Assembly: GCF_044647545.1 (NCBI RefSeq)
Contig: NZ_CP172818.1
Origin: Escherichia coli
Lineage (GTDB): Bacteria > Pseudomonadota > Gammaproteobacteria > Enterobacterales > Enterobacteriaceae
Direction: 5' to 3' (one strand)
DNA: 64,000 bases
Part shown: positions 1,858 to 52,930 of the stretch, one piece after another
Numbering within the stretch: position 1 is the stretch's first letter
How the letters are laid out: each line of letters opens with the position of its first letter
Notes under the pieces: generated by a model
What the model saw: only the letters and a program-made list of their open reading frames with translations
Databases searched by the model: none
What the model was told of the DNA's origin: nothing
Position numbers and translations under genes: made by a program

Positions 1858-4246
<2,389 letters not shown>

Positions 4247-5089: not shown

Positions 5090-5365
5090 ATGGCACGCGT
5101 AACTGTTCAGGACGCTGTAGAGAAAATTGGTAACCGTTTTGACCTGGTACTGGTCGCCGCGCGTCGCGCTCGTCAGATGCAGGTAGGCGGAAAGGATCCG
5201 CTGGTACCGGAAGAAAACGATAAAACCACTGTAATCGCGCTGCGCGAAATCGAAGAAGGTCTGATCAACAACCAGATCCTCGACGTTCGCGAACGCCAGG
5301 AACAGCAAGAGCAGGAAGCCGCTGAATTACAAGCCGTTACCGCTATTGCTGAAGGTCGTCGTTAA
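5090..5365 (+). CDS. rpoZ: RNA polymerase omega subunit
   Basis: 91-codon [32 protein letters not shown]; immediately upstream of spoT. Confidence 0.95.
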
Positions 5366-5383
5366 TCACAAAGCGGGTCGCCC

Positions 5384-7492
5384 TTGTATCTGTTTGAAAG
5401 CCTGAATCAGCTGATTCAAAACTACCTGCCGGAAGACCAAATCAAGCGTCTGCGGCAGGCGTATCTCGTTGCACGTGATGCTCACGAGGGGCAAACACGT
5501 TCAAGCGGTGAACCCTATATCACGCACCCGGTGGCGGTTGCCTGCATTCTGGCCGAGATGAAACTCGACTATGAAACGCTGATGGCGGCGCTGCTGCATG
5601 ATGTGATTGAAGATACACCCGCCACCTACCAGGACATGGAACAGCTTTTTGGTAAAAGCGTCGCCGAGCTGGTAGAGGGGGTGTCGAAACTTGATAAGCT
5701 CAAGTTCCGCGATAAGAAAGAGGCGCAGGCCGAAAACTTTCGCAAGATGATTATGGCGATGGTGCAGGATATCCGCGTCATTCTCATCAAACTTGCCGAC
5801 CGTACCCACAACATGCGCACGCTGGGCTCACTTCGCCCGGACAAACGTCGCCGCATCGCCCGTGAAACCCTCGAAATTTACAGCCCGCTGGCACACCGTT
5901 TAGGTATCCACCACATTAAAACCGAACTCGAAGAGCTGGGTTTTGAGGCGCTGTATCCCAACCGTTATCGCGTAATCAAAGAAGTGGTGAAAGCCGCGCG
6001 CGGCAACCGTAAAGAGATGATCCAGAAGATTCTTTCTGAAATCGAAGGGCGTTTGCAGGAAGCGGGAATACCGTGCCGCGTCAGTGGTCGCGAGAAGCAT
6101 CTTTATTCGATTTACTGCAAAATGGTGCTCAAAGAGCAGCGTTTTCACTCAATCATGGACATCTACGCCTTCCGCGTGATCGTCAATGATTCCGACACCT
6201 GTTATCGCGTGCTCGGGCAAATGCATAGCCTGTACAAGCCGCGTCCGGGTCGCGTAAAAGATTACATCGCCATTCCAAAAGCGAACGGCTATCAGTCTTT
6301 GCACACCTCGATGATTGGCCCGCACGGCGTGCCGGTTGAGGTCCAGATCCGTACCGAAGATATGGATCAGATGGCAGAGATGGGTGTTGCCGCGCACTGG
6401 GCTTATAAAGAGCACGGCGAAACCAGTACTACCGCACAAATCCGCGCCCAGCGCTGGATGCAAAGCCTGCTGGAGCTGCAACAGAGCGCCGGTAGTTCGT
6501 TTGAATTTATCGAGAGCGTTAAATCCGATCTCTTCCCCGATGAGATTTACGTTTTCACACCGGAAGGGCGCATTGTAGAGCTGCCTGCCGGTGCAACGCC
6601 CGTCGACTTCGCTTATGCGGTGCATACCGATATCGGCCATGCCTGCGTGGGCGCGCGTGTCGACCGTCAGCCTTACCCGCTGTCGCAGCCGCTGACCAGC
6701 GGTCAAACCGTTGAAATCATTACCGCACCGGGCGCTCGCCCGAATGCCGCGTGGCTGAACTTTGTCGTCAGCTCGAAAGCGCGCGCCAAAATTCGTCAGT
6801 TGCTGAAAAACCTCAAGCGTGATGATTCTGTTAGTCTGGGCCGTCGTCTGCTCAACCATGCGTTGGGTGGCAGCCGCAAGCTCAATGAAATCCCGCAGGA
6901 AAATATTCAGCGCGAGCTGGACCGCATGAAGCTGGCAACGCTTGACGATCTGCTGGCTGAAATCGGCCTTGGTAACGCTATGAGCGTGGTGGTCGCGAAA
7001 AATCTGCAACATGGGGACGCCTCCATTCCACCGGCAACCCAAAGTCACGGACATCTGCCCATTAAAGGTGCCGATGGCGTGCTGATCACCTTTGCGAAAT
7101 GCTGCCGCCCTATTCCTGGCGACCCGATTATCGCCCACGTCAGCCCCGGTAAAGGTCTGGTGATCCACCATGAATCCTGCCGTAACATCCGTGGCTACCA
7201 GAAAGAGCCAGAGAAGTTTATGGCTGTGGAATGGGATAAAGAGACGGCGCAGGAGTTCATCACCGAAATCAAGGTGGAGATGTTCAATCATCAGGGCGCG
7301 CTGGCAAACCTGACAGCGGCAATTAACACCACCACCTCGAATATTCAAAGTTTGAATACGGAAGAGAAAGATGGTCGCGTCTACAGCGCCTTTATTCGTC
7401 TGACCGCCCGTGACCGTGTGCATCTGGCGAATATCATGCGCAAAATCCGCGTGATGCCAGACGTGATTAAAGTCACCCGAAACCGAAATTAA
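5384..7492 (+). CDS. spoT: Bifunctional (p)ppGpp synthetase / hydrolase SpoT
   Basis: 702-codon frame with HD, synthetase, TGS and ACT regions; first codon is TTG (non-ATG start). Confidence 0.95.
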   Translation: MYLFESLNQLIQNYLPEDQIKRLRQAYLVARDAHEGQTRSSGEPYITHPVAVACILAEMKLDYETLMAALLHDVIEDTPATYQDMEQLFGKSVAELVEGVSKLDKLKFRDKKEAQAENFRKMIMAMVQDIRVILIKLADRTHNMRTLGSLRPDKRRRIARETLEIYSPLAHRLGIHHIKTELEELGFEALYPNRYRVIKEVVKAARGNRKEMIQKILSEIEGRLQEAGIPCRVSGREKHLYSIYCKMVLKEQRFHSIMDIYAFRVIVNDSDTCYRVLGQMHSLYKPRPGRVKDYIAIPKANGYQSLHTSMIGPHGVPVEVQIRTEDMDQMAEMGVAAHWAYKEHGETSTTAQIRAQRWMQSLLELQQSAGSSFEFIESVKSDLFPDEIYVFTPEGRIVELPAGATPVDFAYAVHTDIGHACVGARVDRQPYPLSQPLTSGQTVEIITAPGARPNAAWLNFVVSSKARAKIRQLLKNLKRDDSVSLGRRLLNHALGGSRKLNEIPQENIQRELDRMKLATLDDLLAEIGLGNAMSVVVAKNLQHGDASIPPATQSHGHLPIKGADGVLITFAKCCRPIPGDPIIAHVSPGKGLVIHHESCRNIRGYQKEPEKFMAVEWDKETAQEFITEIKVEMFNHQGALANLTAAINTTTSNIQSLNTEEKDGRVYSAFIRLTARDRVHLANIMRKIRVMPDVIKVTRNRN

Positions 7493-7498
7493 TGTTTT

Positions 7499-8188
7499 AT
7501 GAACCCAACACGTTATGCACGTATCTGCGAAATGCTCGCCAGGCGGCAGCCTGATCTGACCGTCTGCATGGAGCAGGTCCACAAACCTCATAACGTTTCT
7601 GCGATTATTCGTACCGCAGATGCCGTTGGTGTACATGAAGTTCATGCTGTCTGGCCTGGCAGTCGGATGCGCACCATGGCTTCGGCAGCTGCGGGTAGTA
7701 ACAGCTGGGTACAGGTGAAAACGCACCGCACCATTGGCGATGCCGTCGCTCATCTGAAAGGCCAGGGCATGCAGATTCTGGCAACCCATCTTTCTGATAA
7801 CGCTGTCGATTTCCGCGAAATTGATTACACTCGCCCGACCTGTATTTTGATGGGACAGGAGAAAACAGGCATCACGCAGGAAGCGTTGGCCCTGGCGGAT
7901 CGGGACATCATCATTCCGATGATTGGCATGGTGCAATCGCTGAATGTTTCCGTTGCCTCAGCCCTCATTCTTTACGAAGCCCAGCGCCAGCGGCAAAATG
8001 CGGGCATGTACCTGCGTGAAAACAGCATGTTGCCGGAAGCAGAGCAACAACGCCTGTTGTTTGAAGGCGGCTATCCGGTGCTGGCGAAAGTCGCAAAACG
8101 CAAAGGCCTGCCTTACCCCCACGTCAATCAGCAGGGCGAAATTGAAGCTGATGCCGACTGGTGGGCTACCATGCAGGCTGCAGGATAA
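7499..8188 (+). CDS. trmH: tRNA (Gm18) 2'-O-methyltransferase
   Basis: 229-codon SpoU-family methyltransferase 6 bp downstream of spoT. Confidence 0.9.
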   Translation: MNPTRYARICEMLARRQPDLTVCMEQVHKPHNVSAIIRTADAVGVHEVHAVWPGSRMRTMASAAAGSNSWVQVKTHRTIGDAVAHLKGQGMQILATHLSDNAVDFREIDYTRPTCILMGQEKTGITQEALALADRDIIIPMIGMVQSLNVSVASALILYEAQRQRQNAGMYLRENSMLPEAEQQRLLFEGGYPVLAKVAKRKGLPYPHVNQQGEIEADADWWATMQAAG

Positions 8189-8193
8189 GTGCC

Positions 8194-10275
8194 ATGAAAG
8201 GTCGCCTGTTAGATGCTGTCCCGCTCAGTTCCCTAACGGGCGTTGGCGCAGCGCTTAGTAACAAGCTGGCGAAAATCAACCTGCATACCGTGCAGGATCT
8301 ACTCTTACACCTTCCCCTGCGCTACGAAGATCGCACCCATCTCTACCCCATCGGAGAACTACTACCGGGCGTTTATGCCACGGTGGAAGGCGAAGTGCTG
8401 AACTGCAATATCTCCTTCGGCGGTCGGCGGATGATGACCTGCCAGATCAGCGACGGTTCCGGCATTCTCACCATGCGCTTTTTCAACTTCAACGCGGCAA
8501 TGAAAAATAGCCTGGCGACGGGCCGCCGCGTGCTGGCCTATGGAGAAGCAAAGCGCGGTAAATATGGCGCGGAGATGATCCACCCGGAATACCGCGTGCA
8601 GGGCGATCTCAGTACGCCAGAGTTGCAGGAAACGCTTACGCCGGTTTATCCAACAACCGAAGGCGTAAAGCAGGCCACGCTGCGTAAATTAACCGACCAG
8701 GCGCTTGATCTGCTCGACACCTGCGCCATTGAAGAACTCCTGCCGCCGGAACTGTCACAAGGAATGATGACGCTACCGGAAGCGTTGCGCACTTTGCACC
8801 GCCCGCCGCCGACGCTACAGCTTAGCGATCTGGACACCGGCCAGCATCCGGCACAACGCCGTCTGATTCTGGAAGAACTGCTGGCGCACAACCTCAGCAT
8901 GTTAGCCTTACGTGCCGGAGCACAGCGTTTTCATGCCCAGCCACTGAGCGCCAATGACGCGCTGAAAAATAAACTCCTCGCCGCCTTACCGTTCAAGCCA
9001 ACGGGCGCACAGGCACGCGTAGCGGCGGAGATCGAGCGCGATATGGCGCTGGATGTGCCGATGATGCGCCTGGTACAGGGCGATGTAGGTTCCGGTAAAA
9101 CGCTGGTCGCCGCCCTCGCCGCGCTGCGTGCGATTGCCCACGGCAAACAGGTGGCATTGATGGCACCAACCGAATTACTCGCCGAACAGCACGCCAATAA
9201 CTTCCGTAACTGGTTTGCACCGCTCGGTATCGAAGTGGGCTGGCTCGCCGGTAGGCAGAAAGGTAAAGCGCGGCTGGCACAGCAGGAAGCCATCGCCAGC
9301 GGTCAGGTGCAGATGATTGTCGGAACACACGCCATCTTCCAGGAACAGGTGCAGTTTAACGGTCTGGCGCTGGTGATTATCGACGAACAGCATCGTTTTG
9401 GCGTGCATCAGCGTCTGGCGTTATGGGAGAAAGGCCAGCAGCAGGGCTTCCATCCGCATCAGTTGATCATGACCGCCACGCCCATCCCCCGCACGCTGGC
9501 GATGACTGCGTATGCTGATCTCGATACCTCGGTGATAGATGAGCTGCCGCCAGGCCGCACGCCAGTGACTACGGTCGCTATTCCTGATACCCGCCGTACC
9601 GACATTATTGACCGCGTGCGCCACGCCTGCATAACTGAAGGTCGTCAGGCATACTGGGTTTGTACGTTGATTGAAGAGTCGGAATTGCTGGAAGCGCAGG
9701 CGGCGGAAGCAACCTGGGAAGAGTTGAAACTGGCGTTGCCGGAACTGAACGTCGGCCTGGTACACGGGCGGATGAAACCTGCCGATAAACAGGCGGTGAT
9801 GGCGTCGTTTAAACAAGGTGAACTACACCTGCTGGTTGCCACTACCGTTATTGAAGTCGGTGTTGATGTGCCTAACGCCAGTCTGATGATTATCGAAAAC
9901 CCTGAGCGTCTGGGTCTGGCGCAGTTACACCAGCTTCGCGGGCGTGTAGGTCGTGGTGCGGTGGCTTCTCACTGCGTGCTGCTCTACAAAACGCCGCTCT
10001 CCAAAACCGCGCAAATTCGGCTGCAAGTGCTGCGCGACAGCAACGACGGTTTTGTGATTGCACAGAAAGACTTAGAGATTCGCGGCCCTGGCGAATTGTT
10101 AGGTACGCGTCAGACGGGTAATGCTGAATTTAAAGTGGCGGATTTACTGCGCGATCAGGCGATGATCCCGGAAGTTCAGCGCCTGGCGCGACATATTCAC
10201 GAACGTTACCCACAACAGGCAAAAGCCCTGATAGAACGCTGGATGCCGGAGACGGAACGTTACTCGAATGCGTAA
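8194..10275 (+). CDS. recG: ATP-dependent DNA helicase RecG
   Basis: 693 codons from ATG 8194 (MKGRLLDAVPL); Walker A GDVGSGKT, DEQH box and helicase C-terminal motifs. Confidence 0.95.
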   Translation: MKGRLLDAVPLSSLTGVGAALSNKLAKINLHTVQDLLLHLPLRYEDRTHLYPIGELLPGVYATVEGEVLNCNISFGGRRMMTCQISDGSGILTMRFFNFNAAMKNSLATGRRVLAYGEAKRGKYGAEMIHPEYRVQGDLSTPELQETLTPVYPTTEGVKQATLRKLTDQALDLLDTCAIEELLPPELSQGMMTLPEALRTLHRPPPTLQLSDLDTGQHPAQRRLILEELLAHNLSMLALRAGAQRFHAQPLSANDALKNKLLAALPFKPTGAQARVAAEIERDMALDVPMMRLVQGDVGSGKTLVAALAALRAIAHGKQVALMAPTELLAEQHANNFRNWFAPLGIEVGWLAGRQKGKARLAQQEAIASGQVQMIVGTHAIFQEQVQFNGLALVIIDEQHRFGVHQRLALWEKGQQQGFHPHQLIMTATPIPRTLAMTAYADLDTSVIDELPPGRTPVTTVAIPDTRRTDIIDRVRHACITEGRQAYWVCTLIEESELLEAQAAEATWEELKLALPELNVGLVHGRMKPADKQAVMASFKQGELHLLVATTVIEVGVDVPNASLMIIENPERLGLAQLHQLRGRVGRGAVASHCVLLYKTPLSKTAQIRLQVLRDSNDGFVIAQKDLEIRGPGELLGTRQTGNAEFKVADLLRDQAMIPEVQRLARHIHERYPQQAKALIERWMPETERYSNA

Positions 10276-19580: not shown

Positions 19581-19675
19581 GGAAGATCGTCGTCTCCGGT
19601 GAGGCGGCTGGACTTCAAATCCAGTTGGGGCCGCCAGCGGTCCCGGGCAGGTTCGACTCCTGTGATCTTCCGCCA
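19581..19675 (+). tRNA. selC: tRNA-Sec (selenocysteine tRNA)
   Basis: 95-nt sequence GGAAGATCGTCGTCTCCGGTGAGGCGGCTGGACTTCAAATCCAGTTGGGGCCGCCAGCGGTCCCGGGCAGGTTCGACTCCTGTGATCTTCCGCCA with long variable arm and anticodon-loop ACTTCAAAT (UCA anticodon). Confidence 0.97.
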
Positions 19676-39049: not shown

Positions 39050-39190
39050 TAACAAAAAACCCCGCCGGAGCGAGGTTTCGTCAGTCGCCTGCGGCTGGTA
39101 ACCGCAAAGCACACTGTATTATGTCAACACTGAAAGTATACGTGTTCCGCGCAGAACGCGCAATTTCGGCACGAATTTTGACGTATTTAG
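39050..39190 (-). ncRNA. istR: IstR small RNA region (IstR-1/IstR-2), antitoxin of tisB
   Basis: Minus-strand hairpin plus U-run terminator near 39054-39080; the segment near 39108-39128 is complementary to the tisAB leader near 39370-39390; transcript ends approximate. Confidence 0.55.
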
Positions 39191-52426: not shown

Positions 52427-52840
52427 TTAGTTGATTTCGATACGGCGCGGTTTTTTCGCTTCCGGAATCACGCGTTCAAGATCGATATACAGCAGACCAT
52501 TCACCAGGTTAGCACCACGAACATGAATGTTCTCAGCTAACTGGAATTTGCGTTCAAAGTTGCGTTCAGCGATGCCCTGGTACAGATAGGTGCGCTCTTT
52601 TTGTTCGTCGGCGTGAGCACCTTTCACCACCAGCAGATTATCCTGGGCGGTAATTTCCAGTTCGCTCTCAGCAAAACCAGCCACAGCGATAGCAATGCGG
52701 TAATGGTTTTCGTCTACCAGTTCAACGTTATACGGAGGGTAGCCGCCATTACTCTGGCTCTGGTTGTTTTCTAAGTGGTTAAACAAACGGTCAAATCCAA
52801 TAGCAGAACGGTAAAGCGGGGATAAATCAAAGTTACGCAT
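52427..52840 (-). CDS. ibpA: Small heat shock protein IbpA
   Basis: 137 codons from the ATG at 52840 ([12 protein letters not shown]); alpha-crystallin domain. Confidence 0.93.
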
Positions 52841-52930
52841 AATCAATAGCTCCTGAAATCAGCGAGAATGTAAGACCTTCCACAATGGACAGGTCAGGTA
52901 GCCAGAACACCCATCAGGCGCGTCCTCATC

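Follow-up and report, generated by a model that had tools for sequence, protein, structure and literature searches.

The window analysed here is a stretch of 64,000 nucleotides of Escherichia coli DNA, and the feature under study is the junction in it between rpoZ, which encodes the omega subunit of RNA polymerase, and spoT, whose product breaks down the starvation alarmone ppGpp. The two genes lie on the same strand in the gene order gmk, rpoZ, spoT, trmH, recG, as in the record of strain FDAARGOS_497, and the Shine-Dalgarno (SD) element of spoT falls inside the short gap between them (Table 1). An 801-base query was found with at least 95% identity in 5424 of 5426 complete genomes and with 100% identity in FDAARGOS_497; the region is chromosomal. 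The locus matches that of E. coli K-12 in gene (spoT, b3650), in operon order (gmk-rpoZ-spoT-trmH-recG) and in TTG position, i.e., the start site is identical.

Read in codons, the rpoZ-spoT junction runs ...GGT CGT CGT TAA TCA CAA AGC GGG TCG CCC TTG TAT CTG TTT GAA AGC CTG..., where TTG TAT CTG (fMet-Tyr-Leu, 5384-5392) opens the spoT frame and the N-terminus of the 702 aa product is MYLFESLNQL. The nearest in-frame stop on the 5' side is the TAA of rpoZ itself (5363-5365), at -21. The in-frame codons that follow it up to the TTG (TCA CAA AGC GGG TCG CCC) contain no canonical start, which excludes an upstream start serving the conserved N-terminus. The TTG at 5384 is the only ATG, GTG or TTG of the frame between the rpoZ TAA and codon 50, and the spoT CDS in the RefSeq record of FDAARGOS_497 begins at the matching base. 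That spoT opens with TTG, as an earlier note on this DNA had claimed, is thus borne out by the frame scan, the RefSeq annotation and the cross-species alignment (see below); it was also right that the frame has no ATG close to the SpoT N-terminus, the first one being codon 59. The 16 bp that it gave between the rpoZ stop and the TTG needed correction, since the last base of the TAA is 5365 and the first of the TTG 5384, leaving a spacer of 18 nt.

Two downstream codons of the same frame were considered as starts and rejected. GTG50 is not kept across species, and a protein beginning there would lack His48, with an HD_4 match 24 residues shorter at its N-terminal end. A start at ATG59 would delete residues 1-58, including the beginning of the HD domain (PF01966). 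No SD was found ahead of ATG59, which has GCCGAG directly on its 5' side and appears in the cross-species alignment as a conserved internal Met.

The identity of the gene as spoT, also given in the earlier note, was confirmed by the RefSeq annotation and by a full-length match to the NCBIfam SpoT equivalog NF008303 (1542.7 bits, residues 1-702 of 702, cut-off 947); with the RelA equivalog model the protein scored 444.5, under the cut-off of 728. The domains follow the order expected for SpoT as a long RSH protein, a bifunctional (p)ppGpp synthetase/hydrolase: HD hydrolase, RelA_SpoT synthetase, TGS, AH/RIS and ACT. From the translation and the alignment to Rel structures, the HD-motif residues are intact, His48 in the ITHP motif and His72-Asp73 in LHDVIEDT; we take these to be metal ligands, on the basis of the RelSeq structure. 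Solved Rel/SpoT structures align with SpoT from residue 6-11 onward. At codon 13 (5420-5422) the window has Asn where P0001, a cluster representative with 99% identity, has Thr; no other residue of the N-terminal helix varies as much across Enterobacterales (N, T, H, S, Q, K, R).

Table 1 Features of the rpoZ-spoT junction and domains of SpoT. Positions are those of the window unless residues are given.
Feature	Position	Strand	Description	Basis
rpoZ	5090..5365	+	RNA polymerase omega, 91 aa, upstream cistron; stop TAA 5363-5365	ORF list, annotation
rpoZ-spoT spacer	5366..5383	+	18 nt; weak Shine-Dalgarno element and C-rich stretch	
Weak Shine-Dalgarno-like AGCGGGU	5372..5378	+	5 nt between its 3' U and TTG	
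spoT initiation codon	5384..5386	+	TTG (UUG)	sole canonical start, RefSeq CDS, conservation
spoT CDS	5384..7492	+	702 codons plus stop	ORF list, NF008303, Pfam
GTG codon 50	5531..5533	+	first downstream in-frame canonical start (rejected alternative)	frame scan
ATG codon 59	5558..5560	+	first in-frame ATG (rejected alternative)	frame scan
HD_4	SpoT residues 26-175			Pfam
HD (PF01966)	SpoT residues 45-144			Pfam
RelA_SpoT	SpoT residues 235-345			Pfam
TGS	SpoT residues 388-447			Pfam
RelA_AH_RIS	SpoT residues 459-541			Pfam
ACT_4	SpoT residues 622-699			Pfam

Conservation of the spoT start codon

A scan of a species-level genome collection gave 80 loci from other species of Enterobacterales and Vibrionaceae, 81 with E. 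coli; the sampled genera were Escherichia, Citrobacter, Klebsiella, Yersinia, Serratia, Erwinia, Proteus, Photorhabdus, Photobacterium and Vibrio. The alignment of SpoT N-termini across species, which the earlier note had suggested as a check on its start codon, agreed with it: at the place of the E. coli start codon, 79 of the 80 other species have TTG, one has GTG and none has ATG. The sole departure, the GTG, is at 1501-1503 of the locus of Ca. Steffania adelgidicola. This AT-rich insect endosymbiont has a 30-nt rpoZ-spoT gap and no detectable SD (duplex +2.7 kcal/mol). Because only about 3% of E. coli genes start with UUG (bioRxiv 10.1101/063800), the retention of TTG in 79 of 80 species exceeds chance. 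Most species have an in-frame stop 6-30 nt 5' of the start, only 6 nt away in eight of them, so that an upstream start is impossible there.

Parsimony changes were counted per alignment column on a neighbour-joining tree that covered 79 taxa. None was found at any base of the TTG; the median at third codon positions was 15, and of 149 such positions only 5 had one change or fewer. All 15 conserved Leu codons among the first 150 codons drift synonymously (2-22 changes at the first position, 3-26 at the third). The absence of changes at the TTG against this drift identifies it as a constrained start codon, and the possibility that it is an internal Leu codon was rejected on the same comparison. 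Column statistics also place the beginning of coding periodicity at codon 2: over codons 2-30 the mean entropy was 0.45 bits at the first codon position, 0.29 at the second and 1.10 at the third, compared with 1.47 bits in the 30 nt upstream of the start.

More distant SpoT orthologues were collected by a HMMER search of 50%-identity cluster representatives. Many of their N-termini are co-linear with E. coli residue 1 and have the pattern M-x-x-F-x-x-L. The eight orthologues whose DNA we compared, with at most 67% identity, all start in the same register, six of them with ATG and two with GTG, and every one has a stop in frame 6-45 nt before the start. This shared register independently fixes the position of the spoT start. 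In these loci rpoZ either was missing or preceded spoT by 8-235 nt, and in six of them spoT came directly after it. The comparison shows the TTG start as what appears to be a trait of Enterobacterales and Vibrionaceae and not of SpoT generally; ATG suffices in distant orthologues, so SpoT does not need a weak start as a rule.

The rpoZ-spoT spacer and the relation of spoT to rpoZ

The strength of the SD was estimated from the most favourable duplex between the 3' end of 16S rRNA and the 20 nt before the start. The duplex was -5.4 kcal/mol in E. coli, with a median of -3.8 over the 81 loci. A conserved core, (A/G)GGU, ends 5 nt before the TTG, and G occupies positions -7, -8 and -9 in 82%, 76% and 56% of the species. 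The SD of the window is thus at a normal distance from the spoT start (GGGU, 5 nt before the TTG) and its duplex is weak; we infer from the sequence which of its bases would pair with 16S rRNA. Between the core and the start, C is found at -1, -2 and -3 in 79%, 89% and 57% of the species. The spacer bases 5375-5383 (-9 to -1 of the start) are conserved as GGGUCGCCC or AGGUCUGCC in loci L002-L073 of the scan. A spacer so rich in C is unusual for a ribosome-binding site, and it is absent in Vibrionaceae; it could serve either to weaken initiation or as a determinant of decay. No structure beyond controls was predicted at the junction, where the segment 5340-5430 had a minimum free energy of -16 kcal/mol and shuffled sequences averaged -17.5 (z = +0.51), and Rfam gave no RNA family in or near it.

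The rpoZ-spoT gap was 17-25 nt in 78 of the 81 loci, and the rpoZ stop was TAA in every one of them. This short and conserved spacing makes translational coupling of spoT to rpoZ plausible. A limited literature search returned nothing relevant on rpoZ-spoT coupling. Like operon pairs coupled by termination and re-initiation, the two genes share strand and mRNA and have a short gap with the SD within it; they differ from such pairs in that no masking hairpin is predicted at their junction and in that the two cistrons are unequally expressed, tight coupling usually going with a roughly 1:1 output of both. With no sequestering structure predicted around the downstream start, coupling of the unmasking type finds no support, and any coupling would have to be by re-initiation. 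For the rpoZ segment of the mRNA, stabilisation relative to the spoT segment has been reported, and the authors of that work saw in it a way to meet a greater need for omega than for SpoT (PMC5927463).

In E. coli the spoT frame is the same as that of rpoZ, from which just the TAA and six sense codons separate it (5363-5386). Over the 81 loci the gap modulo 3 was 0 in 36, 1 in 29 and 2 in 16. With the frames of the two genes related so variably, their agreement in E. coli looks accidental.

Readings of the weak start

The original sequence paper on spoT, by Sarubbi et al. in J Biol Chem in 1989, reportedly assigned the UUG start. Papers on the polyamine modulon list spoT as a gene with an "inefficient initiation codon UUG", polyamine-responsive synthesis and a normally placed SD (PMC4405209, PMC7177335, PMC4191411), PMC7177335 classing it under 'normal position of the SD', and PMC7593582 explicitly mentions the native spoT ribosome-binding site with its TTG start codon. 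Terui et al. 2012, cited in PMC4405209, PMC7177335 and PMC4191411, reportedly found that SpoT synthesis in K-12 is stimulated by polyamines and that the stimulation is lost when UUG is changed to AUG. The same replacement in gshA raised basal synthesis 3.0-fold (PMC4405209, PMC7177335), and GUG and UUG starts yield 10-100% of the output of AUG (bioRxiv 10.1101/063800). The link that the earlier note drew between the TTG and low expression of SpoT is therefore well supported by the literature (PMC4405209, PMC7177335) and by the weak SD. The TTG start, the missing nearby ATG and the link to weak expression are already known and published.

Class 2 of the polyamine modulon (cya, cra, frr, gshA, uvrY and spoT itself) combines an inefficient UUG or GUG start with a normal SD. 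The window presents the same arrangement, with a UUG, an SD-like GGGU 5 nt upstream of it and no alternative canonical start for the conserved N-terminus, and in these sequence features we saw no difference from the class. The spoT start can also be compared with that of infC: both are conserved sub-optimal starts on low-abundance regulators of translation or growth physiology. They differ in the codon, the non-canonical AUU of infC versus UUG in spoT, and in regulation; feedback through IF3 discrimination is demonstrated for the AUU of infC, with IF3 regulating its own synthesis, and none is known for the spoT UUG.

We consider it very probable that the TTG at 5384 is the true and sole start of spoT and that the UUG, the weak SD and the C-rich spacer together hold SpoT below omega, a reading to which we add, more tentatively, coupling to rpoZ and selection for weakness. 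The UUG would be read as fMet by the initiator tRNA, and this near-cognate codon, with the weak SD (GGGU) and the C-rich spacer, would make a poor initiation site. Much less SpoT would then be made than omega, whose gene ends 18 nt before spoT on the same transcript. Ribosomes terminating at the rpoZ TAA may re-initiate 18 nt downstream and so provide part of spoT initiation, and selection may keep the codon weak if an excess of SpoT or a wrong SpoT to omega ratio is harmful. Differential mRNA decay (PMC5927463) would add to the excess of omega over SpoT.

Three other readings of the junction were weighed. If translation began at GTG50 or ATG59, a shorter SpoT would be made and the TTG would be a Leu codon in an untranslated or spuriously extended frame. 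ATG59 is indeed the first in-frame ATG and is conserved in other species, but codons 2-58 are strongly conserved at the protein level with third-position wobble, and both the SpoT equivalog model and the solved Rel/SpoT structures cover this region. The HD matches begin at residues 26 and 45, so that His48 of the ITHP motif would be lost; moreover, GTG50 is not conserved, ATG59 has no SD and, as true Leu codons drift, the TTG has not changed once. A downstream start is accordingly very improbable and can be taken as effectively refuted. The shared frame of rpoZ (from 5090) and spoT (from 5384), in which the TAA at 5363-5365 is the sole intervening stop, would permit readthrough into an omega-SpoT fusion. 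The variable gap modulo 3 in the 81 loci speaks against this, as do the extra in-frame stops 6-18 nt before the TTG in many species and the fact that TAA is the most efficient terminator, and we consider a functional fusion very unlikely.

A different kind of alternative accepts the TTG as the start and supposes that it is kept by phylogenetic inertia or by a constraint on the tight junction, such as a processing or decay site or a context for ribosome release. Positions -1 to -3 are likewise conserved as C-rich across Enterobacterales, the unequal decay of the rpoZ and spoT segments of the mRNA implies a determinant near the junction (PMC5927463), and distant SpoT orthologues use ATG or GTG with no apparent problem. 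Inertia is hard to reconcile with nearby silent sites that changed a median of 15 times when the first T of the start codon changed in none of 79 taxa and once in the endosymbiont, and a junction constraint with the lack of a predicted stable structure there; the reported experimental dependence of SpoT synthesis on the UUG (PMC4405209, PMC7177335) also counts against this alternative. We regard inertia or junction constraint as unlikely, though not negligibly so, and favour a start held weak by selection: the TTG is frozen amid saturated silent sites and distant orthologues have ATG or GTG, which argues that the weakness of the spoT start is selected rather than accidental.

A more far-reaching idea, which we put forward as doubtful but with some chance of being right, is that the TTG, the weak SD and the fixed distance of ~18 nt from the TAA together make up a unit under selection, found in Enterobacterales and Vibrionaceae alone, which besides keeping SpoT low would tie its synthesis to the translation of rpoZ and to the state of initiation fidelity (IF3, polyamines and possibly ppGpp acting on IF2). 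If so, the state of translation would act back on how much ppGpp hydrolase is made, and distant lineages with ATG or GTG and variable spacing would be without such feedback.

SpoT sets the basal level of ppGpp, and relA+ cells cannot do without its hydrolase; how its amount is fixed in relation to omega and RelA is thus of consequence for growth-rate control and for persistence. To what is published our comparison makes one modest addition, the apparent fixation of the TTG across Enterobacterales and Vibrionaceae as against ATG or GTG in distant orthologues. Gene callers and expression constructs should retain the spoT TTG.

Other features of the operon and the window

Beyond spoT the operon is packed as tightly as at the rpoZ-spoT junction (7490-7501, 8186-8196): a 6-nt gap separates the spoT stop, with its last base at 7492, from the trmH ATG at 7499, and the trmH stop ends at 8188, 5 nt before the annotated recG start at 8194. 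Mechanically called ORFs departed from the annotation for three genes, with gmk starting at GTG 4355 (RefSeq start 4412), recG at GTG 8161 (RefSeq start 8194) and ligB ending at 4160 (annotation 4154). As the ORFs of gmk, recG and ligB overshoot the RefSeq starts, the rule of taking the first start fits spoT only through its close upstream stop.

Elsewhere in the window Rfam matches were obtained for tRNA-Sec (selC, 19581-19671, + strand), the Hfq-binding antitoxin RNA istR (39054-39183, - strand) and a ROSE_2 RNA thermometer (52834-52906, - strand). In FDAARGOS_497 selC is ~6.7 kb further from spoT than in the window, and the yicH-yicI interval of that strain lists PTS-fructose, aldolase, ROK-kinase and lyxose-isomerase genes. 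Judging from the selC distance, the strain of the window probably lacks this yicH-yicI segment.
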